From: a bacterium | GTDB taxonomy: Bacteria; SAR324; XYD2-FULL-50-16 | Assembly (NCBI GenBank): GCA_032250835.1 | Contig: JAVVEA010000001.1 | Coordinates: 384,001-448,000, forward strand | Reading direction: 5' to 3' | DNA: 64,000 nt | Shown: positions 8,211-33,287 of the stretch, one piece after another | Layout of the letters: each line of letters starts with the position of its first letter | How positions within the stretch are numbered: position 1 is the first letter of the stretch | The notes under the pieces: generated by a model | Told to the model about the DNA's origin: nothing | Seen by the model: only the letters and a program-made list of their open reading frames with translations | Database searches by the model: none | Made by a program: the position numbers and the translations under genes

Positions 8211-9128
8211 ATGCCTTCTCGCGCTCTTAAGGCGCGGGCCGATCTACTGACGCGGCTGCGTCACTTTTTTGCACAGCGGGGGCTGACCGAGGTCAGCACC
8301 CCGCTGCTCTGCTCCTACCCCAACCTAGAAGCTCATATCGACCCGGTCCCAGCAGGCTCAAACCGCTGGCTGCCCAGTTCTCCCGAATATGCCATGAAAC
8401 GCCTGTTGGCGGCTGGCTCGGGATCGATCTACCAGATTTGTCCGGCCTTCCGTTTGGGCGAGTTGGGCGCTAAACACCAGCCTGAATTCACGCTCTTAGA
8501 GTTTTATCTAGTCGCCCAGGATCATTGGGGCCTGATGGACTTTGTGGACCAACTGCTGCAAGAGGTTTTAGGTTGGCCTGCGGCCCAGCGGATTGATTAT
8601 GCAGAGGTCTTTAGAGATACCCTGGGCATCAACGCCTTGGCCTTAGAGATGGACGCCTTCGCTAAGGCCTTAAAATCGCGCCAAATGGCGGTTCCTGAAT
8701 TTCTGATGACCGCCAACACCACCCAAACGGACCGGCTGGATTACCTCTTTTCGACGTTGATCGAACCCGATTTAGGTACCGACCGGCCGGTTTTGTTGAC
8801 CGGTTATCCCCCCTTTATGGCCGCGCTGGCACGCATAGACCAAGGGCGCGCCGCGAGGTTCGAGGTCTTTTACCGGGGACTGGAGTTAGGCAATGGTTTT
8901 TGGGAGCTTAAAGACCCCGCTGAACAGCGAGCCCGCTTTGAAGAAGCCAACCGCCAAAGGGTAGCTGCGGGAAAGTCGGCCTATGGGGTAGACGAACGAT
9001 TCTTGGCCTGCTTAGACCAATTGCCAGATTGTGCGGGAATCGCCCTAGGTTTAGACCGCCTGCTGATGCTTTGGCTGGGCGTTGATTCTATCGACCAGGT
9101 TTTAACCTTGCCTTGGGATCAAATCTAA
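8211..9128 (+). CDS. epmA: EF-P lysine aminoacylase EpmA (GenX/PoxA)
   Basis: SSPEYAMKRLLAAGSG, HQPEFTLLEFY, ELGNGFWEL, GIALGLDRL; abuts efp. Confidence 0.93.
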   Translation: MPSRALKARADLLTRLRHFFAQRGLTEVSTPLLCSYPNLEAHIDPVPAGSNRWLPSSPEYAMKRLLAAGSGSIYQICPAFRLGELGAKHQPEFTLLEFYLVAQDHWGLMDFVDQLLQEVLGWPAAQRIDYAEVFRDTLGINALALEMDAFAKALKSRQMAVPEFLMTANTTQTDRLDYLFSTLIEPDLGTDRPVLLTGYPPFMAALARIDQGRAARFEVFYRGLELGNGFWELKDPAEQRARFEEANRQRVAAGKSAYGVDERFLACLDQLPDCAGIALGLDRLLMLWLGVDSIDQVLTLPWDQI

Positions 9129-9540: not shown

Positions 9541-10161
9541 CTACCCCCTGCGCAAATCAAAGCCTTGGTAATTAAGCTGCTTAAGCCAGCCTTCGGCTTC
9601 GGCAGAGGTTTCGTCAGCACAACTCGCCACCACCACCGCCGCCTCACTTTGGGTGAGCATCTGCCTAAAAAGCTCCTGCATCGGCGGGTCTAGCGGTCGT
9701 TTATGTAGTTCACTGATCAATATAAGCCCACTTTCTTGGAAGGCCAGGGCGCAGAGCACAAAACGGAGTTTGTCTTCGCCATGGAGCTTATAGATCGGGA
9801 AATGCCGTAGATGCCAAGCTTTGATCTGCTCCATCAGGTGCCGCTTGGCGGTACGGCGTCCGCCGAGGCGGGTGAAAGGTTCGGATTCTAAAGCTAGATA
9901 ACCTCCGGCATGACGCCGGTATACCTTTTCGCCGAGCAGCAATCGGTCAGACTGGCAAAGATACTCTCTCGCTTTGGTCACCACCCCACGATCTGGCCGG
10001 TAGCGGCCCTCTAAGATACCAAACAGGCAATTGAGCTGGTCGCGGTGGTCAAATAGGAGGTGGTAGCGCCGCCCCGATTCGATTTCTAAGCTAACCCGTT
10101 GCAGCCCAAATTCCTCACCAGCAAAAAGATCTATATTAGAGAGCTGTGCCACCAAGGCCAT
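9541..10161 (-). CDS. Degenerate ABC-ATPase-like protein
   Basis: ABC NBD spacing is retained, but Walker A, signature and Walker B are all substituted. Confidence 0.6.
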   Translation of the reverse strand: MALVAQLSNIDLFAGEEFGLQRVSLEIESGRRYHLLFDHRDQLNCLFGILEGRYRPDRGVVTKAREYLCQSDRLLLGEKVYRRHAGGYLALESEPFTRLGGRRTAKRHLMEQIKAWHLRHFPIYKLHGEDKLRFVLCALAFQESGLILISELHKRPLDPPMQELFRQMLTQSEAAVVVASCADETSAEAEGWLKQLNYQGFDLRRG

Positions 10162-10164
10162 AGA

Positions 10165-10656
10165 TCACTCCCAGCCCAGCGCTTGTCTGGAAATTTTTTC
10201 CAAGTGTTTTTGGTAGGCTGCCATTTCCGGGTCCCCTTCGGCGGGAGCCCAGGGAGCAAAGTCTTTATCGCTGATCTTAACGTAAGGCCCATGTTTGACT
10301 TCGTAATAAACGCTGCCGGGCTCAAAAGACAAGATGGCATGCCAAGTTCCCACCGGCACCTCGACCCCGTAATCTAACGAAGCAGGGTCCAGGGGAAAAA
10401 ACTGAACGGCTTCGCCGGAATCGTCGAAAAAGATCACCACACCGCGTCCTTTTAAGCACAAAAAAGCTTCGGCTTTGGGCGGGTCGAGATGGCGGTGCGG
10501 CTGGACGTAGGAGCCGGGCTCGATGGCGTTTAACATACGCTGAACCAAATCATCAGCCGATTGATGAAAATTGAAGTTGGTTCGGCCTCGGGGCGTTTCA
10601 GCTCCCTTCTTAGCGGTCGTTTCGAGTAGATTCCGGTTGATGGCGATGCCGGTCAT
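10165..10656 (-). CDS. WbuC family cupin-fold metalloprotein
   Basis: RGRTNFNFH, VQRMLNAIEPGSYVQPHRH, GTWH, EVKHGPY, FAPWAPAEG. Confidence 0.88.
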   Translation of the reverse strand: MTGIAINRNLLETTAKKGAETPRGRTNFNFHQSADDLVQRMLNAIEPGSYVQPHRHLDPPKAEAFLCLKGRGVVIFFDDSGEAVQFFPLDPASLDYGVEVPVGTWHAILSFEPGSVYYEVKHGPYVKISDKDFAPWAPAEGDPEMAAYQKHLEKISRQALGWE

Positions 10657-10816: not shown

Positions 10817-11202
10817 CAGCTGGCCTGGGGGCGGTAGGACTCAATGAATCCTTTGAGTTGGTCTAAGTCATAAGGCTTGATCAAAACACCCGTCGCCCCA
10901 GCATTAAGGTAAGCTTCGGTTTTGTCTTGGGCGGTGGACATCAAGACCGGCAGGTTTTGGTATTCTGCTAGGCTACGCAGCTTACGTAGCAACCCCAAGC
11001 CATCACTAAAGGGCAGGTTGACGTCTAAAATCACCAAATCCACGCGGCTGCTGGCCCGCAGTAGGGCGTAGGCCTCAAAGGCATCGTGGCACAGCAGCGT
11101 TTCAACCCCGCCGATCTTGGATAACACCTTGGCAATCAATTTGATTTGCGGTTGGCTGTCTTCAACTAGCAATATCTTCAAATGAGTTTTAAATAGGCTC
11201 AT
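10816..11202 (-). CDS. Single-domain response regulator (CheY-like)
   Basis: ILLVEDS, LVILDVNLPFSDG, LMST, KP. Confidence 0.9.
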   Translation of the reverse strand: MSLFKTHLKILLVEDSQPQIKLIAKVLSKIGGVETLLCHDAFEAYALLRASSRVDLVILDVNLPFSDGLGLLRKLRSLAEYQNLPVLMSTAQDKTEAYLNAGATGVLIKPYDLDQLKGFIESYRPQAS

Positions 11203-11334
11203 GTAGTGTTCTCCTTAGGTGACTCAAAATCTAGCGCCTCTGGGTCTGTTTTGCCAAGTCTTAGCTGCGCTTGGCCAGTTTACAATCGAAGGCATCCATC
11301 GTATTGTGGTAGGAGCACCCCTGTTAGGAGTTGA

Positions 11335-12195
11335 GTGAATCCACAGACCCTTTTTAGTTTCGGATTGGAGCCAGTTAGCGACCCATCCCTATGGGCTACC
11401 CTCTTTTTGCTATTCGGCCTCTTTGTGCTGCATGTGCTGATCCAAAAGCTTTTGGCTCCGCGTTTTGCAGACTTGCACACCCGTTATTTGGTGGTCAAAA
11501 GCAGTTCGACGCTGCTGCTCTTTTTGACTATCTTCTTTTTTGCCAAGTTGTGGTTCAACAACTTTGTCAGCCTCGCCACCTTCATGACCATGATCTCCGT
11601 AGGCTTGGTGATCGTGCTCAAAGAGGTGTTGCTCAATTTTTTCGCCTCCATTGTGATCCTCTGGCGCAGCCCCTTTAAGCTGCGCGACCGCATCCAGATC
11701 GGCGAAATCACCGGCGACGTAGTGGATTTAGGGCTCTTTTACTTTACGGTCTTAGAAGTCGGCAACTGGATCAAGGCGGACCAATCGACAGGCCGCACCC
11801 TCAAGGTGCCCAATGCGCTGGTCTTAACCCAGCCGATTGCTAATTTTAGCCGTGGCCTGCAAAGCATTTGGAACGAGATCCCGGTGCGTTTTGCCGCCGG
11901 GACGGACTGGGAAGCAGCCAAAGCGGTGATGCTTAAAACCGGCACCCGCGAGTCCCTAAAAGCCATCGACCATGCAAAACAGGCCATGAAGCGCGCTGAA
12001 AGTGAGATCATTTATACCTGCTTGACACCCACCATATACACCCGGTTTGATGATGAGGGCATCACCCTCACCCTTCGGTATTTGTGCAATCCTAGGCAAC
12101 GTAGAGATAGCGAGCACCATATATTTGAAGAGCTTCTTCACGAATTTATAGGGCACAAGAAGATTATTTTGATGTTAGACAAAAAAAAGGCTTGA
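11335..12195 (+). CDS. MscS family mechanosensitive channel
   Basis: Three TM segments, PFKLRDRIQIGEITGDVVD, DQSTGR, VPN. Confidence 0.9.
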   Translation: MNPQTLFSFGLEPVSDPSLWATLFLLFGLFVLHVLIQKLLAPRFADLHTRYLVVKSSSTLLLFLTIFFFAKLWFNNFVSLATFMTMISVGLVIVLKEVLLNFFASIVILWRSPFKLRDRIQIGEITGDVVDLGLFYFTVLEVGNWIKADQSTGRTLKVPNALVLTQPIANFSRGLQSIWNEIPVRFAAGTDWEAAKAVMLKTGTRESLKAIDHAKQAMKRAESEIIYTCLTPTIYTRFDDEGITLTLRYLCNPRQRRDSEHHIFEELLHEFIGHKKIILMLDKKKA

Positions 12196-12288
12196 TTAAG
12201 TCCTTTTAAGCCTCCATCATCTCTTATTCTTTCTTGCTACACCGCCTTCTGCGGTGCCGTTCCTGAAACCCCGGTCGGGAGCCGTGTC

Positions 12289-13581
12289 TTGAGACAAGTC
12301 ATCCATATCATTGCGGAATATATCGGCTGTAAAGCCAACCACGAGCTTTTCACCAATCTCGATGCGTTGATGGCAACGCTTCGCGAGGAAGTCCGCAAAG
12401 CTGGTTTAGAAACAGTTGCCGAAGCTGGTTATTCCTTCGGTGAAGGCTGCGGGGTTACGGGCAGTATTGTACTGGCCGAATCTCACATGAATATCCACAC
12501 CTGGCCTGAGCGGGATTTTTATTGCAACATCGATATTTCGGTCTGCAATTATTCCTGCGACAACTTTCCTAAAGCCCTCGATTTGGCGAATGCGCTCAAG
12601 ACGGTTTTCAAGCCCCTGGACGTTAACGAAAAAATCATTAAAGGCTACCGCGACTTTGAAGACGACAAGTACACCGAGTACTTCTCCTCTGACAGCGGAT
12701 TCTTCATCAAGCCCAATCAGGTGCTGTACCGCAGCGCTGATGAGCTCCAGCAGGTTGAAGTATACGACACCAAAGACTTCGGTCGGGTGCTGCGCATCGA
12801 CAACTTCTTCCAGACCTCTGAACGTGACGAGGCCTTCTACCATGAGCCCCTGATCCACCCGGCCATGATCGCGCACCCCAACCCTGAAAAGGTGTTGATC
12901 ATTGGTGCTGGCGACGGCGGCGTGTTGCACAACGTGCTCAAGCACAAGTGCGTTAAAAAAGCGGTGATGGTCGAAATCTCTGACATGGTCATTGAAGTCT
13001 CTAAGAAGTACCTGCCGATGGTACACAAAGGTGCTTTCGAAGACCCACGTGCTCAGGTGATCATCCAAGACGGCTTGGAATACATCGCCGGGACCGACGA
13101 AAAGTTCGACGTGATCTTGCTAGACCTGACCGACCCGATCGGTCCGGCCCGCGCACTCTATACCAACGCATTTTATGCCAAGGTAAAGAGCGCTTTAAAA
13201 GATCAAGACGGCATTTTGGCTTTACATACCGAGTATCCCTTTTACCACCCTAAGGTATACGGACGTATCAATCAGACCCTGCGGTCTTTGTTTAAGAAAG
13301 TCACCAATGGCTTCAACTTCGTACCCATCTACGGTACGATCATGGGCTTTGGCTACTGTTCTGACCGCACGGACCCCAAAGCACTCAGCCCCGCGGAAGT
13401 ACAAAACCGCTTGGTCGAGCGCGGTGTGACCGACCTCAAGCTGTACAACAGTGAGATGCACTTTAGCTTCTTAGCCGAACCTGCTTATGTGAAGCAGATT
13501 TTGTCTCAAGAACATGAAGTGATCACCCCGGCCAAAGGGTTGGACGAATTCATGCAAACGTATAACGTTGCACGAGATTAA
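12289..13581 (+). CDS. speD-speE: Fused S-adenosylmethionine decarboxylase / spermidine (aminopropyltransferase) synthase
   Basis: N-terminal ~120 aa with VLAESHMNIHTWPE (pyruvoyl E|S site). C-terminal QTSERDEAFYHE, LIIGAGDGG, DVILLDLTDPIGP. TTG start. Confidence 0.92.
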   Translation: MRQVIHIIAEYIGCKANHELFTNLDALMATLREEVRKAGLETVAEAGYSFGEGCGVTGSIVLAESHMNIHTWPERDFYCNIDISVCNYSCDNFPKALDLANALKTVFKPLDVNEKIIKGYRDFEDDKYTEYFSSDSGFFIKPNQVLYRSADELQQVEVYDTKDFGRVLRIDNFFQTSERDEAFYHEPLIHPAMIAHPNPEKVLIIGAGDGGVLHNVLKHKCVKKAVMVEISDMVIEVSKKYLPMVHKGAFEDPRAQVIIQDGLEYIAGTDEKFDVILLDLTDPIGPARALYTNAFYAKVKSALKDQDGILALHTEYPFYHPKVYGRINQTLRSLFKKVTNGFNFVPIYGTIMGFGYCSDRTDPKALSPAEVQNRLVERGVTDLKLYNSEMHFSFLAEPAYVKQILSQEHEVITPAKGLDEFMQTYNVARD

Positions 13582-13605
13582 CGGCACTCTTACCTGAGGT
13601 TGAGC

Positions 13606-13977
13606 ATGAGCCAAGCAAACAACCCCGAGCCCTGGGGCTGGTCTACCTCGGTGGACCTGTATGGGTGCGATCCCGAAGCGATTCGTTCGGAAGTAAAAAT
13701 CAAAGAGTACGTCAAGCAATTGGTGGCGTTGCTCCAGATGAAAGCTTTCGGCGAAACACAGGTAGTGCATTTCGGCGAAGATGAGAAGGTTGAAGGCTTT
13801 TCGATGACCCAACTGATCGAAACCAGCCTGATTTCCGGTCATTTTGCCAACGCCAGCAACGCGGCCTATTTGGATATCTTCTCCTGCAAGGCCTATGATG
13901 CAGAAGAAGCCGCCAAATTCTCTAAAGAGTTTTTTGGTGCCAAAGAAGTCAGCATGCAAATGTTAGTGCGGCGCTAG
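13606..13977 (+). CDS. SpeD-homologous pyruvoyl-dependent decarboxylase (candidate ornithine/arginine decarboxylase)
   Basis: WGWSTSVDLYGCD, QLIETSLISGHFAN and YLDIFSCK give the AdoMetDC fold with a non-canonical cleavage motif. ATG at 13606 (TTG 13600 in the ORF track). Confidence 0.85.
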   Translation: MSQANNPEPWGWSTSVDLYGCDPEAIRSEVKIKEYVKQLVALLQMKAFGETQVVHFGEDEKVEGFSMTQLIETSLISGHFANASNAAYLDIFSCKAYDAEEAAKFSKEFFGAKEVSMQMLVRR

Positions 13978-13985
13978 TCGTCAAC

Positions 13986-14024
13986 CGGTCGAGGGCTTGC
14001 CCCTTGACCGGCCCCCGCCTTTTT
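13986..14024 (+). terminator. Putative terminator hairpin after the polyamine operon
   Basis: CCGGTCGAGGG-CTTGC-CCCTTGACCGG; the T tract lies a few nt downstream. Confidence 0.55.
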
Positions 14025-14149
14025 CCGAACTCCCCGCAATTTCCCCCTTTAGCTTAAACAGCGCGCCCATCTACCGTTGCGAAAGCCATAAAAATCGCGC
14101 ATATTGATAACCAAGACTTAAAGGATGTGTTCACCTGCCTAGGAACTCC

Positions 14150-16459
14150 ATGCAGCCATTGCAGCTAAACCGGTTTTATCTCTGGAAGATCTTTTTCTTG
14201 ATCTTCTTGCCGGTAATGGGTTTCATGGCCATTTTGCTTGGGTTGTTTGATCGACATCACCTCCACGAGACTGAAACCCGCCTGATCCAGCGGATCGAAC
14301 AACACCACCACCTCCAACAACAACAGATCGAACGTCATATTGGCCAGCTGCTGTCGGATTTTTATTACCTCAGTCAAGACCTAGACCTCTTCAACCACCT
14401 AGTCAAAGGTAGCCCGCCCGACAAGGATCAGGTTAAACGCTTGATGTCCTTTATCATGTCGCGGGAGAATGTCGACCAATACCGATTTGTTTTGCTAGAC
14501 GGACGTGAGGCCTTCCGCATCAATCAACCCCAAGTGGGTCTGCCGGTTTTGGTCCCCCCGGAAAAGCTTCAAAACAAATCCAGGCGTTACTATTTTGTTA
14601 ATGCAAAGGATTTAGACCCAATGCATTACTACATCTCCCCCTTAGACCTCAACATAGAACACGGGGAGTTGGAGTACCCCTTCAAACCCATGCTGCGCGT
14701 GGCTATGCCTGTTTATAGCCACCAAAAAATCGGCGTGTTGATCGTCAACTATCTGGGTGCCAAACTGCTTGAAGACATCCGCCGGACCACCTACCTAGAC
14801 GGTGGCCAATTGATGATCACCAACGAACAGGGCTATTACCTTTTACATCCAAACGAGGAGATGGAATGGGGTTTTATGATGCCCCAACGCAAAGATTCAT
14901 CTTTCGGCCAGCAGTTCCCTCGTAGTTGGGCCGAGATCCAGGCGCGAAACAACGGCTACTTCCACAACCACGAAGGCCTCTTCGTTTTTGATAAAATCGA
15001 CCTAACCCGGTTGATCATCAGCAACCTTCCGATGAGGCCCTCTAACCAAAACCTACCGAAATGGACGGTAATTAGCCAAATTTCCCAAGCGGCCATCCTC
15101 AGCGAACATTACCAGCAAATGCTGGGCATCTACTATAGCTACGCCGCACTTACGTCACTCTTGGCGGTTTTCTGCTTTTACTTTGCCTGGCATCAGCAAA
15201 AATTAAAGGCCTCTCAACTGCTCAACAAAGAACAAACGGTCACGCTAAAAAAGCGGATCAACGAACTGAATTGTCTATATGACGTGACCCACTTGACCGA
15301 GTCCGAAGAATCGAGCTTTGAAGAGATGATGCAGCGCCTAGTCAACCAAATCCCTCAGGCCTGGGAATACCCTGAATACTGCTCAGCTCGTCTGGTCATA
15401 GGTGCTGACATTTGGCGAACGCCCAACTATAAAGAACCAGAAATGAGCCAGAAAGAGGAGATCTTCAACGATGGGGTTCGGCTCGGTTTTCTGGAAGTAG
15501 GCTATAGCCTCAACACGGGCCGAAAGAGGTTTTTAGACGAAGAGCTGTCTTTGTTGCAAGCCTTAGCGCTCAGGGTCCGCAAGGTATACCAATACCAATC
15601 GGCGCGCGAAATGATCCAAAGCCACCAAGAGCAACTAGAACGCCAAGTATCCCAAAGAACCAGCGAGTTGGCAGAGGCCAATAGCCGTCTGATCCACGAA
15701 GTGGCCGAAAAACAGCGGCTGACCGAGGTCTTAGCCGAAGCGAAGCAACATGCCGAAGAAGCTACCGAGATGAAGACCACCTTCTTGTCCCTGGTGGCCC
15801 ATGACCTAAAATCCCCCTTCTTCTCTATCTTGGGCATCTTGCGGCGCATCTTGCGCAAGGAAGCCAACCTAGACCCCAAGCACCGCAACCTACTCGAAAG
15901 CTCTATTCTCTCAGGCCAGCGGCTGCTGGATATGATTGATAAATTAATCAATATCAATAAAATCCAAACCGGCGGCATCCAGCCAGATTACCAGGAGATT
16001 CTGCCCCATGACATGGTCGGTGAAATTCTCGACCAGTTTGCCGATGCAGCGGATCAAAAGGGGATCAGCTTGGTCAATGACCTCGCGCCTAAAATGGTGG
16101 TAGAAACCGATCCTTTTTTGCTTGGTGAGGTGCTCAGCAATTTGATTTCCAATGCCATCAAGTTTTGCAGCACCGGTGATCAAATCCGGGTCTACCGCGA
16201 AGGCACCAAGGGCCTTAAGTTGGTGGTTGCGGACACGGGCCTCGGGATTGAGCCGCAGGTGATGCAAATGCTCTTTAAGGAACAATTCTCGACGACGACC
16301 ACCGGTACTTTAGGGGAAAAGGGCACTGGTTTGGGCCTGCCCTACAGTGCCGACATCATGCGCCTGTTGGGCGGTGAAATCTCTGTGGAATCCGAAATCA
16401 ATCAAGGCAGTCAATTCATTTTGTCCTTGCCTAGCCACCGCCTGCGACCTTCAATTTAG
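14150..16459 (+). CDS. Membrane sensor histidine kinase (periplasmic dCache-like, GAF-like, HisKA, HATPase)
   Basis: Two TMs, LQNKSRRYYF/YISPLDLNIEHG Cache motif, VAHDLKSP H-box, NLISNAIKF, DTGLGI, GTGLGL. Confidence 0.92.
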   Translation: MQPLQLNRFYLWKIFFLIFLPVMGFMAILLGLFDRHHLHETETRLIQRIEQHHHLQQQQIERHIGQLLSDFYYLSQDLDLFNHLVKGSPPDKDQVKRLMSFIMSRENVDQYRFVLLDGREAFRINQPQVGLPVLVPPEKLQNKSRRYYFVNAKDLDPMHYYISPLDLNIEHGELEYPFKPMLRVAMPVYSHQKIGVLIVNYLGAKLLEDIRRTTYLDGGQLMITNEQGYYLLHPNEEMEWGFMMPQRKDSSFGQQFPRSWAEIQARNNGYFHNHEGLFVFDKIDLTRLIISNLPMRPSNQNLPKWTVISQISQAAILSEHYQQMLGIYYSYAALTSLLAVFCFYFAWHQQKLKASQLLNKEQTVTLKKRINELNCLYDVTHLTESEESSFEEMMQRLVNQIPQAWEYPEYCSARLVIGADIWRTPNYKEPEMSQKEEIFNDGVRLGFLEVGYSLNTGRKRFLDEELSLLQALALRVRKVYQYQSAREMIQSHQEQLERQVSQRTSELAEANSRLIHEVAEKQRLTEVLAEAKQHAEEATEMKTTFLSLVAHDLKSPFFSILGILRRILRKEANLDPKHRNLLESSILSGQRLLDMIDKLININKIQTGGIQPDYQEILPHDMVGEILDQFADAADQKGISLVNDLAPKMVVETDPFLLGEVLSNLISNAIKFCSTGDQIRVYREGTKGLKLVVADTGLGIEPQVMQMLFKEQFSTTTTGTLGEKGTGLGLPYSADIMRLLGGEISVESEINQGSQFILSLPSHRLRPSI

Positions 16460-16467
16460 TCCTTGAA

Positions 16468-18393
16468 ATGAGCGCAAGAGAACTACAAAAAAGTGTTGAT
16501 CAATTCATCCGCTCACAACGACGCAAGCGGATCCAGCCGGCCGAACGGGACCTGCCTTTAACCCGACTGATTGAGGAAACGGGCCCTCTCGACCCGGATT
16601 GGGTGGAGCAGATTTCTCAATCCAAGGGGGTGGCGCCCAACCAATTCCAGCCGGGCAAGCAGGCCTTTGTCGAGGCGATCAAACGCCTCAACGGGCTCAA
16701 CGCAGCCAAACGCCTCTTTGTGCTCGAAACGATCAACCTGCTAGGTAGTCCTGATGCGATAGACAACTTGGTCACTTCCTTGTTTAACGGGAAAGCCGAA
16801 GAGCGCCGCCGCCTAGCCATGAGCTTCATCCTTTCCTTCCGGGGAACCGACCGGGTCACCGACCTATTGGTTAAGGCCAAACATCTCTTCAACGCCAAAA
16901 CCATTGACTCCCAAACTCATGGATTGGTGTCTTTCCGTTTTGAGATGGCCGAAAAGCTGATTTTGTTTTTCAGAAAGTCTTATGTGCTCGCAAGGGCCAA
17001 AGAGCTAGGCATGGACCCAGAGCTCAGCTTGGACCTACTACGAGGCATTTTAAAAGACGGCGACCTAGTCAACCTATCGAAGTTTTTGATCATTGATGAG
17101 GAGTTAAAAGAACGGTTGCCCGAAGTGATCAGTGCCATCCAATCGCACCGGATGTTGCCCATCTACGCCAAGAAGCGTTACGATTTTTTACGGGACTTTT
17201 TTGTTCATCTTTCGGAGCCAGGGAAGTTTCTGGGCGTAGATGGCTCGGACGTCTCGCGGATCTGCGCCGCCTTTTTGTGGACCAACCGGCAGTTGATCCC
17301 CCCGCAAAACTTGGTGGCCGCCATGTTAAAGACCGCCGAATATTCCCTCCCCGCTACCCGCACGCAGCTGATGAACTTCTTAGAGCAATTGGCCCCGTCG
17401 ACGGTGGATGCCTTGATCAAGGATCTTAAGGACATCTTTAAAGCGCTCATGAAAGAGCCCTATGCCGACCTAGGCGCGCTATTCGCTTCGGCCAAGTCCA
17501 AATACGACCAAGGCGAAGAAGACTTAAGCCTCTTTGGACAGGTCTATGCGGGTCTGATGGATATGAAAGCCAAGGGCTGGTTAGCCATCAAAGGAGTCGA
17601 AGAGTTTTTCGAAAAGGTGCGTCATGACCTAGGTGCCGGTGCGAACCCCCAACAGTCCCTTGACGACATCTTCAACGCCGCCCCAGACGTGGACAACGTC
17701 GAACCGCCGATGATGATCGAAAAACACTCTGAGTTCAACCGGCTGTTCCGCAAATTGCGGCCGGTCAACACCACCGTTGATGGTTTCAGAGGGCCCCGCG
17801 AAGGCGCGGGTAAACGGGCTGCCCAAGCGAATCTGCGGGTCTTTGAAAGCCAAGAAAACATGACCCAATTTAAAGAAGGCATGGAGGTCATGTTGGAGTA
17901 TTTCAGTAAAAACTGCTCGGCAATCCACGCTTATGAATTCAAGCCGCCCAAATTTCCTCGGCAGGTAATGGAGCAGCTAGGAAGCTTTCTGGCCATGGAC
18001 GAGGATGAGGAACCCCTGTTGTTGTGCTTCGGCATCACCTACTTCGAAGCCGACGGCGCGGGAGGGAGCGGAGAGATAGAGGACCTGATCACCCGGCATA
18101 TGCTGCCCTACTTCTTCACTATGGTCAGCAGCAACTTCAACACGGTGCTCCACGCCCGTAGCCGCAAGATCGATACTGATTTTAGCAATGAAGATGAGGA
18201 AGATGGAGCCTATGAAGCCAATCTGGGCATGCTGGAGTTTAAGGCCGCTGACCTGACCTACGCCGAATACTTCCGCTCCGCAGCCCAGCATTTACTAGCA
18301 CTCTTCCATGGCCTGCCTGAGCCCGCATGGCGTTCTGCCGAGGTTCAAGGTTCGGTGGCCTTTTTGTTCGACAAACTCAAGATTGCTTACTAA
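16468..18393 (+). CDS. Large cytoplasmic alpha-helical hypothetical protein
   Basis: 641-aa ORF 8 nt after the kinase, with no recognisable motif. Confidence 0.75.
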
Positions 18394-29535: not shown

Positions 29536-30804
29536 TCAGTCCCCTTTTTTGTAAAAGCGCCATTCTTTGCCCACAATCAACCGAGAGGGCCGCCCCCTTG
29601 AGAGGTAAGCCCAGGCCCACTGGACCACCACAAAGAAACGATTTTTAAAGCCCAGCAGATAATAAATATGGATCACCAGCCAGGTGATCCAAGCAAAGAA
29701 ACCCACAAAACGCAGCGGTCCTAACTGGATGATCGCCTTGCTGCGCCCGATGGTCGCCATCTGGCCTTTATCGATATACTTAAAGGGCCTGCGTGGCTTC
29801 CCGTCCAGTTCGGCCAAAATATTCTTGGCCACCGCGCGGCCCATCTGCATGGCTACCGGAGCCATCCCCGGCAAGGGGCCGCCGGGCTGGTGCGAAAAGT
29901 TGCACTGGTCGCCGATCACAAAAACTTCGGGCTGGTCGGCCAAGCATAATTCTTCGGTCACCATGATGCGCCCGTTGCGGTCCCGTTCCACCTCAAGCGC
30001 TTTGTTCAGCCTCGTCGCCTGGACCCCGGCTCCCCACAAAACGGTTGAACAACGGATGCGTTCGTCGCCCACGGTGACGCCTTCCGCGTTGACGTCCGTT
30101 ACGGTGCTAGAGTTCCAGACCTGAACCCCTAAACTCTCCAAATCGCGCACCACCTTGCTGGCCAAGCTGGGGTGGAAACTGGGCAAAATCCGGGGGCCCG
30201 CCTCAATCAAGATCACCCGGGCCAAGGTCGGGTCGATATGGAAGAAATCTTTGGCCAAGGTATAGCGGCTCATCTCCCCGATGGCTCCGGCCAACTCCAC
30301 ACCCGTAGGGCCGCCACCGACCACAACGAAAGTCAAATGGTGCTTCTGCCGGGTTTTGTCGGTTTCTTTTTCCGCCAGTTCAAAGGCGTTTAAAACCCGG
30401 CGGCGGATTTCGGTTGCTTGTTCCAAGGTCTTTAAACCCGGCGCAAACTCTTCCCATTCTTCGTGGCCAAAATAGCTGTGCTGGACGCCGCAACCGAGCA
30501 CTAGATAGTCGTAAGGATAGCGCCCGTGTGGGGTGAGCACTGCGCGGCCCTCACGGTCCACGGCGATGACCTCGTCTTGTAAGATGCGCATGTTCGCTTG
30601 ATTCGAAAACAGCGCGCGGATCGGTTGGGCAATCTCGGCCGGACTCAGGCTGGCCATGGCTACCTGATACAGTAAGGGCTGGAAGAGGTGGTAATTACGG
30701 CGGTCAATCAAGGTGATCTCAACGCTTTTTTTATTTACCAGCGCTTTTGCGGCATTCAGCCCGGCAAATCCTCCGCCGACGATCACCACCTTTTTGCGTT
30801 CCAT
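29536..30804 (-). CDS. ndh: Type II NADH dehydrogenase
   Basis: GGGFAG, LFQPLLYQVA, GGGPTGVE, GD...APVA.QMG, YIDKGQMATIGR. Confidence 0.95.
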   Translation of the reverse strand: MERKKVVIVGGGFAGLNAAKALVNKKSVEITLIDRRNYHLFQPLLYQVAMASLSPAEIAQPIRALFSNQANMRILQDEVIAVDREGRAVLTPHGRYPYDYLVLGCGVQHSYFGHEEWEEFAPGLKTLEQATEIRRRVLNAFELAEKETDKTRQKHHLTFVVVGGGPTGVELAGAIGEMSRYTLAKDFFHIDPTLARVILIEAGPRILPSFHPSLASKVVRDLESLGVQVWNSSTVTDVNAEGVTVGDERIRCSTVLWGAGVQATRLNKALEVERDRNGRIMVTEELCLADQPEVFVIGDQCNFSHQPGGPLPGMAPVAMQMGRAVAKNILAELDGKPRRPFKYIDKGQMATIGRSKAIIQLGPLRFVGFFAWITWLVIHIYYLLGFKNRFFVVVQWAWAYLSRGRPSRLIVGKEWRFYKKGD

Positions 30805-30887
30805 AGCTCTACAAGAAGAATAGTTTGGGGCCCAGTTTCGGGCCGAAGGGTTATCCTAGGCCAGAAGCCACATTCCCGCAAGAGTCC

Positions 30888-33287
30888 TTAAGGGGATTTC
30901 CCGTCTATTGTAGCAAGCTTCGCCTCGGCCTCGGGATATCCTAGGTGCGCCGCTTGGCGTAGGTATCTTTCGGCCTTGGCCGGTTCTTGTTTTAAGTAGA
31001 GTTGGTAAGCCGCCCAGGCAGCGACGGGAAGGCTGGCTGCGGCCTGCTCGACCCAACGAACGCCGATGCGCAAGTCTTCGTCATTTTGGCGGTGCTTGAC
31101 CAGCATTCGCCCCAAAGCGTACTGAGCCAAATCCAACCCCGATTTGGCGGCCTGCTGATACAGCGCACCGGCTTTGGGTAGATCGGCTACTTGCCCGAAG
31201 CCCTCTTCCATAGCCCTGCCGGCAAAATAGATCGCATAGGGATTCCCTTTTTTCACTAAAGGCCCCAACAAGGCAAAACCCCCTTTAATATCTTGCGGGG
31301 TGCCCCGACCGCTGACTAACATCCCGCCCAGGTAGGCCGCCGCGTTTTCATCGCCCTGTTGTTGAGCTTCACTAAACCAGCCAAAAGCCAAGTCATCGTT
31401 TGCCGGTAATTGCCGTCCCTCGGCAACCAGGCGGCCGATCCAAAAGGCGGCCCCAGGCTCTTTTTGTAGGTACCTTGCATAGAGCGGGCGCAACAATCGA
31501 TCTTCACGGGTCTGGTCAAAAACCGGCTCTTTTTTAAAATCATGCCGCGACTGCCCCATCAGACTCAATCGACCTTGTTCTAAGTTCCAATCGCTGGTCA
31601 GGCGCGGGCCCTGGGTCTGTAAAAAATCGCCGTCTAGGTCCTGCACTAATTGTCCCAGATGGTCGCTATCTTGGCCACTAAGGGCTTCGGCCAAAAGCGG
31701 CCATTGTTCAATGGTCAAACTGCCCAACAAGAGCCCCTGGTTAAGCCAGGAATTCAGAAAAAACCGGCCCGCATGCCCTTGATCGGTGCGGCTCAAGAAA
31801 GAAAGGTAGCCCAATTCCAGGGGGAAATCCGCACCGGAGCGACTCCGGGCCAATTTCAAGTTCAGGGCGGCCGACTGGTCGAAGTGACTTAAGCTGTCCA
31901 ACTCAAAGCGGCGCGGCCCACTCAACTGCCAAAGCAGGGCGTAGCCTTGCGTTACATCGTTCCCGCCGGTCTCGAATGCCTCGCGGATGCCCGCCAAGTC
32001 CAATCCTTTAAGCCGTAACCGGCCCGAATGATCCATCTTCGAGAGCACCCCGGGCATCTCGGGCCGCTCCCCCTGGGCTTTCCACTGTGCCTCTAGGTCC
32101 AAGGCCCCCTGGGCCGATGCACCCTCCCCCTTAAAATTCAAAAAGTCTAGAATCAAAGGCTCAGGCCCTCCCAGCGCCTTAAGCCCCTTCAAATCAAAGG
32201 CCCAATCAAATTCAACGCCTTCTAATAATTTAAGTAAGGCCCCGAGGTTGCGCTGGTTATTCGGCAGGTCATGGTAGGCTGAAAATTGGGGGCTTTGGTA
32301 ATGACTGCGGCTCGAAGCACTTAAGCGCGCCAGTTCCCAATGCCGCCCCAGCAAATCGGCGACAAATCCTTGAATCTCAAGACTAAAATCTACTAGATAC
32401 CGCTTTGCGCTAAAAAAGCTACTTTCCTTGCCCTGTTTCAGGTCTAACTTGGCTTGTTTAAGCTCCAACAACTCACCGGAGCGCGGGTCTTGGTAGTGCA
32501 AGCTATTGATCTGGTTGTGGCTATTGAGGCTACTGAGGAGTTCATCAGACAACCTAGCTTGGGCCTCTGCTCTGGCGTCTGAGTCGGCGGCCTGCAAGAG
32601 ATCAAGGTAGGCTTGGTGGCTGAAGCTCAAGCGGTTTTCGCTGGTCCAGCCGGTCAGTTCCAGTTCGGGGCTCTGGATGGCCAGATGGAAATCCAGTTTG
32701 CCCTGGCTCATTTGGTCTTGGGGTTTCAGCCCGAAGACTAGGCGGCTCAATTCAAACTGCACCGGCACACTGAGACCCCAGTCAACAAAGAACAGCAACC
32801 GCTTTATTTTTAAGTCGCCCGCTAAAGGACCCGAGGGGCTTTGGCTGTATCCTTCTCCGGCTTCTGCGCGCCAATCACGCGAACCGAGACTCTTAAAGGA
32901 AAAGCGGTATCCGCTCACCCCGTCGGCGCTCAAATCTTCGGGTCTGAAAGATAGTTCCAGGTCTTTGCCTTGAAACCCGTCGGGGTCCTTAGCGCTAAAG
33001 GCTTTAAAGATATGTAGAGTAACCCGTTCGGGCCGGTAGTCTAGCTTCGCGCCATCAATTTCCAACCGCTGGCCCAGTAATTCCAGTTGTCCTTGTAATA
33101 GGTGGATTCTTTGGGCTTGGGCGTCCACCTGGGTCGAGGTGGTGACGAGGCGGATAGGGCCAATATTGAGCGGCTTGGCTAGCAGCAATTGGAGCTGTTC
33201 AAAACTCAAGCTTGCGGCGAAGAGCGGGGCCGCACAGAAGCCAGCCACCAGGGCGAGACTGAGATTCCGTAAGATCCTAAACGTCAT
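30888..33287 (-). CDS. Exported protein with C-terminal Sel1-like repeats
   Basis: Signal peptide from ATG 33287; Sel1 repeats (AFGWFSEAQQQGDENAAAYLG; ALYQQAAKSGLDLAQYALG). Confidence 0.75.
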   Translation of the reverse strand: MTFRILRNLSLALVAGFCAAPLFAASLSFEQLQLLLAKPLNIGPIRLVTTSTQVDAQAQRIHLLQGQLELLGQRLEIDGAKLDYRPERVTLHIFKAFSAKDPDGFQGKDLELSFRPEDLSADGVSGYRFSFKSLGSRDWRAEAGEGYSQSPSGPLAGDLKIKRLLFFVDWGLSVPVQFELSRLVFGLKPQDQMSQGKLDFHLAIQSPELELTGWTSENRLSFSHQAYLDLLQAADSDARAEAQARLSDELLSSLNSHNQINSLHYQDPRSGELLELKQAKLDLKQGKESSFFSAKRYLVDFSLEIQGFVADLLGRHWELARLSASSRSHYQSPQFSAYHDLPNNQRNLGALLKLLEGVEFDWAFDLKGLKALGGPEPLILDFLNFKGEGASAQGALDLEAQWKAQGERPEMPGVLSKMDHSGRLRLKGLDLAGIREAFETGGNDVTQGYALLWQLSGPRRFELDSLSHFDQSAALNLKLARSRSGADFPLELGYLSFLSRTDQGHAGRFFLNSWLNQGLLLGSLTIEQWPLLAEALSGQDSDHLGQLVQDLDGDFLQTQGPRLTSDWNLEQGRLSLMGQSRHDFKKEPVFDQTREDRLLRPLYARYLQKEPGAAFWIGRLVAEGRQLPANDDLAFGWFSEAQQQGDENAAAYLGGMLVSGRGTPQDIKGGFALLGPLVKKGNPYAIYFAGRAMEEGFGQVADLPKAGALYQQAAKSGLDLAQYALGRMLVKHRQNDEDLRIGVRWVEQAAASLPVAAWAAYQLYLKQEPAKAERYLRQAAHLGYPEAEAKLATIDGKSP

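Follow-up and report, generated by a model that had tools for sequence, protein, structure and literature searches.

A SpeD~SpeE fusion gene and a predicted SpeDC-type ornithine decarboxylase in a putative two-gene spermidine operon of a SAR324 bacterium

Two genes for polyamine synthesis lie next to one another in a 64,000-nt stretch of DNA from a bacterium of the SAR324 lineage (XYD2-FULL-50-16; GenBank assembly GCA_032250835.1, contig JAVVEA010000001.1, positions 384,001 to 448,000). We refer to this whole stretch as “the window,” and coordinates are positions within it unless another contig or locus is named. The first gene, ORF1 (open reading frame 1; 12289–13581, + strand), encodes a 430-aa protein in which a class 1b S-adenosylmethionine decarboxylase (AdoMetDC, or SpeD) is fused in frame to an aminopropyltransferase (SpeE). 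The second, ORF2 (13606–13977, + strand), encodes a 123-aa protein that is predicted from its Pfam match, homologues, structural model, tree position and signature residues to be a SpeDC-type pyruvoyl-dependent L-ornithine decarboxylase. We consider it highly probable that the pair is a compact operon whose products turn L-ornithine and S-adenosylmethionine (SAM) into spermidine. Here, we describe the two genes, the family to which ORF2 belongs, the genomic context, and the alternatives that have to be weighed.

The two genes and their boundaries

ORF1 runs from a TTG start codon at 12289 to a TAA stop codon at 13579–13581. A Shine-Dalgarno-like site, GGGAG (12277–12281, + strand), can be read 7 nt 5' of the TTG, and tblastn matches in related genomes begin at ORF1 residue 1. 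The frame is uninterrupted, with no stops across an open frame of 461 aa, and carries PF02675 at its N-terminus and PF01564 at its C-terminus. The AdoMetDC domain, which aligns to the Thermotoga maritima AdoMetDC structure 1TLU, is at residues 1–122 (12289–12654), and the corresponding Pfam match (AdoMet_dc) covers residues 6–112 (E 1.6e-16). The Pfam domains Spermine_synt_N (residues 129–178) and Spermine_synth (residues 181–360, E 9.7e-53) follow at 12673–13368. The C-terminal two thirds of the protein score 313.9 bits on NF002010, the model for polyamine aminopropyltransferases (cut-off 260), and 257.2 bits on TIGR00417, the speE model (cut-off 249.55), meaning that the aminopropyltransferase half scores as a spermidine synthase.

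The canonical AdoMetDC motif is complete in ORF1: E64, S65 and H66 are followed by H70–E74 (H-T-W-P-E, including W72-P73-E74) and by C86. In the alignment to 1TLU (E 5.2e-10), S65, H70 and C86 fall on S63, H68 and C83 of the T. maritima enzyme, which are its pyruvoyl-forming and catalytic residues (Li et al. 2023, PMC10407285). Self-cleavage is predicted at E64|S65, with the serine codon at 12481–12483. An earlier reading of the locus, made from the sequence alone, had described a SpeD-SpeE fusion with a canonical ESH...HTWPE motif, and Pfam, NCBIfam and the 1TLU alignment all bear this out. The fusion is not peculiar to the window, since both PF02675 and PF01564 are found in 119 of the 120 best ORF1 homologues. 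The closest of these 120 are labelled Lambdaproteobacteria, SAR324 cluster or Deltaproteobacteria, and the next-closest large group consists of Burkholderiales-labelled proteins of about 419 aa with ~39% identity.

For ORF2, the ORF listing gives a TTG start codon at 13600. The ATG at 13606 has a Shine-Dalgarno-like GAGG 6 nt upstream (13596–13599, + strand, read from the sequence) and yields the 123-aa protein used here. This ATG lies exactly 24 nt past the ORF1 stop codon, which is the spacing that the sequence-only reading had reported. Beginning 8 nt past the ORF2 stop codon is a G+C-rich hairpin with an 11-bp stem (13985–14011, + strand), followed by a run of five T residues (14020–14024). 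The hairpin folds at −21.7 kcal/mol (z −2.54; 2 of 200 shuffled sequences fold at least as well) and is likely the terminator of the two-gene unit. It was missed by a consensus terminator scan, since its T residues start 8 nt after the stem; across the consensus promoter and terminator scan as a whole, counts were no higher than in shuffled sequence. A search of 11200–14300 against Rfam, at E values up to 1, returned nothing, i.e., no known riboswitch or leader.

ORF2 and the SpeDC family

ORF2 belongs to the same Pfam family as the N-terminal domain of its neighbor, with a match to AdoMet_dc (PF02675) across residues 17–124 of the listed frame (E 1.6e-24; 86.7 bits, cut-off 25). The two sequences are nonetheless far apart: BLASTP finds no alignment between ORF2 and the ORF1 AdoMetDC domain even at an E value of 100. 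Searches of the PDB by sequence, with ORF2 itself (phmmer) and with a profile of 17 sequences, matched no AdoMetDC structure. An AlphaFold model of ORF2, built on 17 aligned relatives, has a predicted local distance difference test score (pLDDT) of 92.9, and its top Foldseek matches are the AdoMetDC structures 1tmi, 1tlu, 1vr7 and 2iii from T. maritima and Aquifex. These superpose with template modelling (TM) scores of 0.79–0.86 and root-mean-square deviations of 1.6–1.9 Å at 21–22% identity. As the sequence searches of the PDB failed, the link between ORF2 and the solved AdoMetDC fold comes from the predicted structure only.

The family to which ORF2 belongs is large and tightly conserved. 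A protein search found 4411 members at E ≤0.001 among 4415 candidates, and 38 columns are invariant in an alignment of 17 members from many phyla. A scan of one genome per prokaryotic species returned 588 ORF2 relatives. We refer to the best 80 of these 588, picked by two peptide patterns covering ORF2 residues 73–81 and 90–98, as “the 80 loci.” One of them, in Methanogenium cariaci JCM 10550 (L072:3959-4372), encodes exactly WP_062398326.1, a protein that has been characterized biochemically. ORF2 is 59% identical to this protein over 122 residues, without gaps (E 1e-53). Li et al. reported that the M. cariaci enzyme decarboxylates ornithine with a kcat/Km of 920 M−1 s−1 (PMC10407285, Table 3), that it has no activity with arginine or lysine, and that it does not rescue spermidine synthesis in an E. 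coli speD deletion strain (PMC10407285). The other assayed accessions were absent from the Desulfotignum cluster (12 of 12 members), from the Methanospirillum-labelled cluster and, among the 15 of its 82 members listed, from the Atribacteria cluster.

The residues around the cleavage site separate ORF2 from genuine AdoMetDCs. The sequence I-E-T-S-L-I-S-G-H-F-A-N occupies the place of the canonical A-E-S-H-x-x-I-H-T-W-P-E; the altered motif had been noticed in the sequence-only reading, and the alignment agrees with it. Within this region and just beyond it, S74, H79 and C94 are 5 and then 15 residues apart, as are S63, H68 and C83 of T. maritima. All three are invariant in the 17-member alignment and in 80 of 80 loci, at positions that the selecting patterns span. 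Self-cleavage is predicted at T73|S74, with the serine codon at 13825–13827. ORF2 has Thr-Ser-Leu and His-Phe-Ala-Asn in place of the Glu-Ser-His and His-x-Trp-Pro-Glu of genuine AdoMetDCs, in which the proline of Trp-Pro is reported to be completely conserved (PMC10407285). By comparison, canonical SpeD domains encoded at the same loci have His after the Ser, and Trp-Pro after the His, in 35 of 35 cases.

According to the text on Fig. 8 of Li et al., the residues Gln, Thr, Phe and Tyr, in that order within the conserved central region, are diagnostic for SpeDC (PMC10407285). ORF2 has Q69, T73 (just before the Ser), F80 (just after the His) and Y88, and the M. cariaci enzyme has the same four. 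Q69 and Y88, whose counts are independent of how the loci were selected, are each present in 80 of 80 loci. At the position of Q69, the 35 canonical SpeD domains have Val, Ile, Leu, Phe or Ala (with one gap); at that of Y88, they have Ala or Asn. T73 is found in 79 of 80 loci and F80 in 80 of 80, at positions that the selecting patterns themselves span; the canonical domains have Glu (35 of 35) and Thr, Ala or Ser, respectively. In the five complete homologues from the window's family, found by whole-protein search, all seven residues are present, including all four signature residues (5 of 5).

The position of ORF2 was also examined in a quick maximum-likelihood tree of 57 rows. The tree comprises ORF2, 30 of the 80 loci, 8 homologues from related genomes, 16 neighboring canonical SpeD domains, the ORF1 domain, and the AdoMetDC of Sinorhizobium phage phiN3; the 30 loci were chosen by hand for taxonomic spread, and the other 50 were left out. 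A branch with 99% support in the Shimodaira–Hasegawa-like approximate likelihood ratio test (SH-aLRT) divides the 17 canonical SpeD domains, including that of ORF1, from the other 40 rows, among them ORF2 and the M. cariaci enzyme. The first grouping of ORF2 is with two members from its own family of genomes (support 95%). The sequence-only reading had proposed a phylogeny as a check and would have been contradicted by a clustering of ORF2 with canonical AdoMetDCs; ORF2 lies apart from these. A tblastn search of ORF2 against 50,697 phage records matched only Sinorhizobium phages, at 22% identity; hence, the characterized phage ornithine and arginine decarboxylases are not in the tree.

Two homologues from related genomes differ from the others. 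In G003, the SpeDC (L096:1477-1848) is only about 44–49% identical to ORF2, lies after a gap of ~230 nt behind the fusion gene, and falls outside the SpeDC group of the family in the tree, while keeping all signature residues; the SpeD~SpeE fusion of the same genome is the closest to ORF1 (78% identity). This SpeDC copy was either replaced or has evolved fast. In G034, a divergent SpeD homologue (L099:11-373) is 27–30% identical to ORF2, has an insertion of ~11 residues, and is without the Gln and Phe of SpeDC. On contig C37 of that genome, a SpeA-sized PF02784 frame adjoins an arginase-family gene. Judged from its sequence, the G034 protein could be a different neofunctionalized type.

Polyamine genes in the genome and its relatives

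The genome that contains the window has 3.66 Mb in 43 contigs and is 97.19% complete. ORF1 and ORF2 are its only PF02675 genes. No arginase/agmatinase family gene was found in the window, as the sequence-only reading had stated, nor in the whole 97.19%-complete genome. Searches of the genome likewise found no agmatine deiminase, no pyruvoyl arginine decarboxylase PdaD, and no gene of the deoxyhypusine-synthase family. Searches for OKR_DC_1, nspC (carboxynorspermidine decarboxylase) and Sacchrp_dh_NADP (the saccharopine-dehydrogenase type) gave nothing above the respective cut-offs in the genome, and the weak OKR_DC_1 match is a LegC-type aminotransferase. The genome shows no SpeA, SpeC, agmatinase, agmatine deiminase, PdaD, NspC, CASDH/HSS or SpeY. 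Li et al. considered genomes that have two SpeD homologues and are without SpeA, SpeC, SpeB and AguA (PMC10407285). By their logic, if a genome offers no way to turn agmatine into putrescine, its second SpeD homologue should be an ornithine enzyme. Ornithine itself should be available, because the genome has an ornithine carbamoyltransferase-like gene, which at 261.8 bits falls just short of the cut-off of 280.85.

ORF2 has the predicted fold, the Ser, His and Cys, the four signature residues, the side of the tree and the genome context that go with SpeDC, and is, judged by its sequence, a member of this family of pyruvoyl-dependent L-ornithine decarboxylases. The proposal in the sequence-only reading that ORF2 is a neofunctionalized SpeD acting on ornithine or arginine is supported by the 59% identity to the M. 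cariaci enzyme, by the signature and by the tree, with ornithine favored.

The genome has two Orn_Arg_deC_N (PF02784) genes. One is LysA (357.6 bits, cut-off 297.9) and the other a LysA-like paralogue. The paralogue is a predicted pyridoxal phosphate (PLP) dependent decarboxylase of 450 aa (L004:1318-2670, contig C14, about 30540-31892), which scores below the cut-offs of both lysA (222.6 bits) and the N-citrylornithine decarboxylase FslC (213.9 bits). It is flanked by an ATP-grasp gene and a weak urea-transporter-like gene, and a second PF02784 match is also present in three related genomes (G003, G006 and G007). Two aminopropyltransferase paralogues occur elsewhere in the genome: a 557-aa protein of the PRK03612 type (566.6 bits, above the cut-off; L007:679-2352, contig C22) and a 292-aa PRK04457-like protein that is below the cut-off (L009:1261-2139, minus strand, contig C11). 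Comparable long frames are found in genomes of the family with and without SpeDC.

An ORF2 homologue (E ≤0.001) is present in 8 of 40 related genomes. Six of the eight (G002, G003, G006, G007, G010 and G013) belong to the window's family, which has 18 other genomes. Each of the six has a full-length SpeD~SpeE fusion directly upstream on the same strand, as a single frame 56–78% identical to ORF1. Within the family, the distribution of arginase-family genes is largely the opposite of that of SpeDC. None of the 7 genomes with SpeDC, including this one, has an arginase-family gene, and 10 of the 12 genomes without SpeDC have one (the exceptions are G001 and G011). This pattern fits an ornithine decarboxylase that makes agmatinase unnecessary.

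Outside the family, the layout was read within flanks of up to 4 kb around each of the 80 loci. The most common result, at 52 loci, is a flank without a SpeD or SpeE match. At 15 loci, a SpeD~SpeDC fusion is followed by speE, which is the Desulfotignum/Omnitrophica type of Li et al.; at 11 loci, speD, speDC and speE are separate genes. Only 2 of the 80 have the window's order, i.e., speD, speE and then speDC, as three separate genes. One of these is in a metagenome-assembled genome of Woesearchaeota (L014) and the other in a Coxiellaceae genome (L045). The tree joins both the SpeD and the SpeDC sequences from these two loci to the window's family (supports 92 and 89); long branches meet in its SpeD part, so that the grouping calls for caution. 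The grouping suggests that the three genes traveled together and that speD and speE then fused in the window's lineage, and it may be a sign that the entire cluster was transferred between an archaeon and bacteria.

Proposed route, alternatives and known systems

In the proposed route, the ORF2 proenzyme would cleave itself at T73|S74 into a beta chain of residues 1–73 and an alpha chain of 50 residues, with S74 becoming the N-terminal pyruvoyl cofactor of the alpha chain. The mature enzyme would turn L-ornithine into putrescine without PLP. ORF1 would cleave itself at E64|S65, and its pyruvoyl-bearing alpha chain would run on into the aminopropyltransferase domain. The AdoMetDC domain would convert SAM to decarboxylated SAM (dcSAM), which would thereby be produced beside the domain that consumes it. 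Finally, the SpeE domain would move the aminopropyl group from dcSAM to putrescine, giving spermidine. A PLP-free spermidine route of this kind was suggested in the sequence-only reading, and every computational test that was run supports it, including the finding that the genome has no agmatine-to-putrescine route. If correct, the route is very compact, with 553 codons in two genes and no PLP dependence in any recognized step.

Several points weigh against this reading. First, the positions of the diagnostic residues were taken from our own alignments, not from Fig. 8 of PMC10407285, and the 80-locus counts for T73, S74, H79, F80 and C94 are circular, since the patterns used for selection span residues 73–81 and 90–98. 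Second, the tree contains a single biochemically characterized SpeDC, that of M. cariaci, and places the phiN3 AdoMetDC on the SpeDC side, on a very long branch. The phiN3 protein is a genuine AdoMetDC, grouped with phage ornithine decarboxylases (PMC9992855), and its placement means that tree position alone does not fix the substrate. Third, with 62.0 bits, the AdoMetDC domain of ORF1 stays below the cut-off of 75.65 for the AdoMetDC equivalog TIGR03330. Fourth, a gene that is missing from a genome 97% complete in 43 contigs is not proven absent, and the LysA-like/FslC-like decarboxylase (L004:1318-2670) may offer a PLP route to putrescine. Fifth, the arginase pattern may reflect one evolutionary split among kin and not several independent events. 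Sixth, the operon, and with it the co-transcription of ORF1 and ORF2, is proposed only from the spacing, the ribosome-binding sites and the downstream hairpin.

Two further points concern the substrate. The arginine-specific enzyme of Pelagibacter phage HTVC201P sits inside the SpeDC clade (PMC10407285), and the phage enzyme UCP01, a SpeDC relative, acts on both ornithine and arginine (PMC9992855). Since arginine decarboxylases are also reported to have arisen from SpeD several times (PMC10407285), ORF2 might be a SpeDA-type arginine decarboxylase whose agmatine is used directly or aminopropylated. We regard this as very unlikely. With neither an arginase-family ureohydrolase nor an agmatine deiminase found in the genome, agmatine would be a dead end; moreover, ORF2 has the full SpeDC signature and its characterized relative accepts ornithine only. 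The phage search described above, in a collection in which the presence of HTVC201P is unconfirmed, likewise found no close phage relative.

Less probable again is that ORF2 is a second, divergent but genuine AdoMetDC that supplies extra dcSAM to the two aminopropyltransferase paralogues encoded elsewhere in the genome. The existence of these paralogues speaks for it, as does the phiN3 AdoMetDC, which shares Gln and Phe with the SpeDC group in addition to its position in the tree. Against it, ORF2 is without the Glu and His that flank the Ser in all 35 canonical domains, and without their Trp-Pro-Glu; it scores 36.1 bits on TIGR03330 (cut-off 75.65); and its M. cariaci relative did not rescue a speD deletion (PMC10407285). 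A genome in which ORF2 were an AdoMetDC would also be left without a recognizable source of putrescine. The least probable alternative is that ORF2 is a dead or regulatory partner that modulates the ORF1 AdoMetDC, like trypanosome prozyme or the degraded C-terminal domain of the Victivallis SpeD-SpeDC protein: degraded SpeDC domains fused to SpeD do exist (PMC10407285), and the single SpeD~SpeDC polypeptides at 15 of the 80 loci suggest that the two domains can work side by side, but in ORF2 the processing Ser, the His, the Cys and the entire conserved core are intact, and these residues do not vary among its relatives, as expected of an active enzyme.

A separate idea accepts that ORF2 is an active SpeDC and concerns its partner. 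Instead of forming a free homodimer, SpeDC might pair with the AdoMetDC domain of the SpeD~SpeE fusion, giving one complex with two pyruvoyl cofactors and an aminopropyltransferase, by analogy to the SpeD~SpeDC fusions of other lineages, whose two domains may pair. We think this unlikely. If it were true, putrescine and dcSAM would be passed straight to the transferase, synthesis of putrescine and spermidine would be coupled, and the window's lineage would have found a second, independent way of tying the three activities together.

With ORF2 taken as a SpeDC, its closest counterpart is the enzyme family described by Li, Liang, Phillips and Michael in 2023 (PMC10407285). ORF2 shares with that family its Pfam assignment, fold, length class, catalytic set and signature, in addition to the 59% identity to the M. 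cariaci member, and the genome criteria used by the authors also hold here. It differs in being known from sequence only and in its lineage, which is absent from the phyla named in the abstract of that paper. The nearest named proteins to those of this lineage are labelled Candidatus Lambdaproteobacteria, SAR324 cluster and Deltaproteobacteria. The text supplement of PMC10407285 does not mention SAR324 or Lambdaproteobacteria, and its main text does not mention SAR324. The SpeDC described here is well supported and comes from a lineage that the founding paper does not list.

The clustering of these genes is also known. Li et al. described speD/speDC/speE clusters in Ca. Atribacteria, Anaerolinea thermophila and Ca. 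Sumerlaeota, and SpeD-SpeDC fusions in Desulfotignum phosphitoxidans and Ca. Omnitrophica OLB16 (PMC10407285). These bring together the same three activities, leading from ornithine to spermidine, as the window does. In the window, however, the order is SpeD, SpeE, SpeDC, and SpeD is joined to SpeE, not to SpeDC. This is a third packaging of the route, a SpeD~SpeE fusion with a separate SpeDC, beside three separate genes and the SpeD~SpeDC fusion. Fusions of AdoMetDC to an aminopropyltransferase have reportedly been found in Delftia and others (Green et al. 2011).

In Ca. Pelagibacter ubique HTCC1062 and in HTCC7211, both halves of such fusions are active (PMC11107197). ORF1 has the same build, a single polypeptide with a class 1b AdoMetDC at its N-terminus and an aminopropyltransferase at its C-terminus. 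Spermine or thermospermine is a further product of the Pelagibacter fusions (PMC11107197). A third comparison is with the SpeD-derived arginine decarboxylase of crenarchaea (Giles and Graham 2008, as cited in PMC9992855 and PMC10407285), in which a SpeD paralogue likewise moved to an earlier step of the pathway. The crenarchaeal enzyme uses arginine, closely resembles its AdoMetDC parent in sequence, and depends on an agmatinase. Unlike it, ORF2 has no BLASTP similarity to the AdoMetDC domain of its neighbor, and the genome is without agmatinase.

What is already known, then, is the SpeDC family, its diagnostic residues, genomes with two SpeD homologues, clustering with speD and speE (PMC10407285), and SpeD~SpeE fusions. 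The novelty implied in the sequence-only reading does not stand, since the family, like its association with speD and speE, was reported in 2023 (PMC10407285). A layout with a SpeD~SpeE fusion followed by SpeDC is undescribed in PMC10407285 with its text supplement and in PMC11107197, and supplementary figures may show one. The ORF1–ORF2 pair is a further instance of a published system, in which the gene arrangement is new and the kind of enzyme is not. It could serve as a test case for the coordination of pyruvoyl enzymes, or as a small pathway module. There is also a consequence for annotation: public sources call close relatives of ORF2 S-adenosylmethionine decarboxylase, a name that is wrong for the SpeDC family by the published evidence.

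The surroundings of the pair in the window are unrelated to polyamines, with an MscS-like channel gene upstream and a Cache/histidine kinase gene (14150–16459) downstream, both identified with Pfam. Two antisense ORFs that overlap the pair, 12406–13068 and 13471–13959, were rejected as genes, having no Pfam family. A 641-aa ORF with no Pfam match (E up to 0.01) lies 8 nt past the kinase gene (16468–18393, + strand). On the minus strand, a 206-aa ORF with no Pfam family (9541–10161) adjoins a DUF6016/cupin-like gene (10165–10656). Further upstream, a gene on the + strand (8211–9128) encodes a 305-aa protein with nothing but a class II (D, K, N) tRNA-synthetase catalytic domain. Its length would presumably fit the EF-P lysylation enzyme EpmA/GenX.

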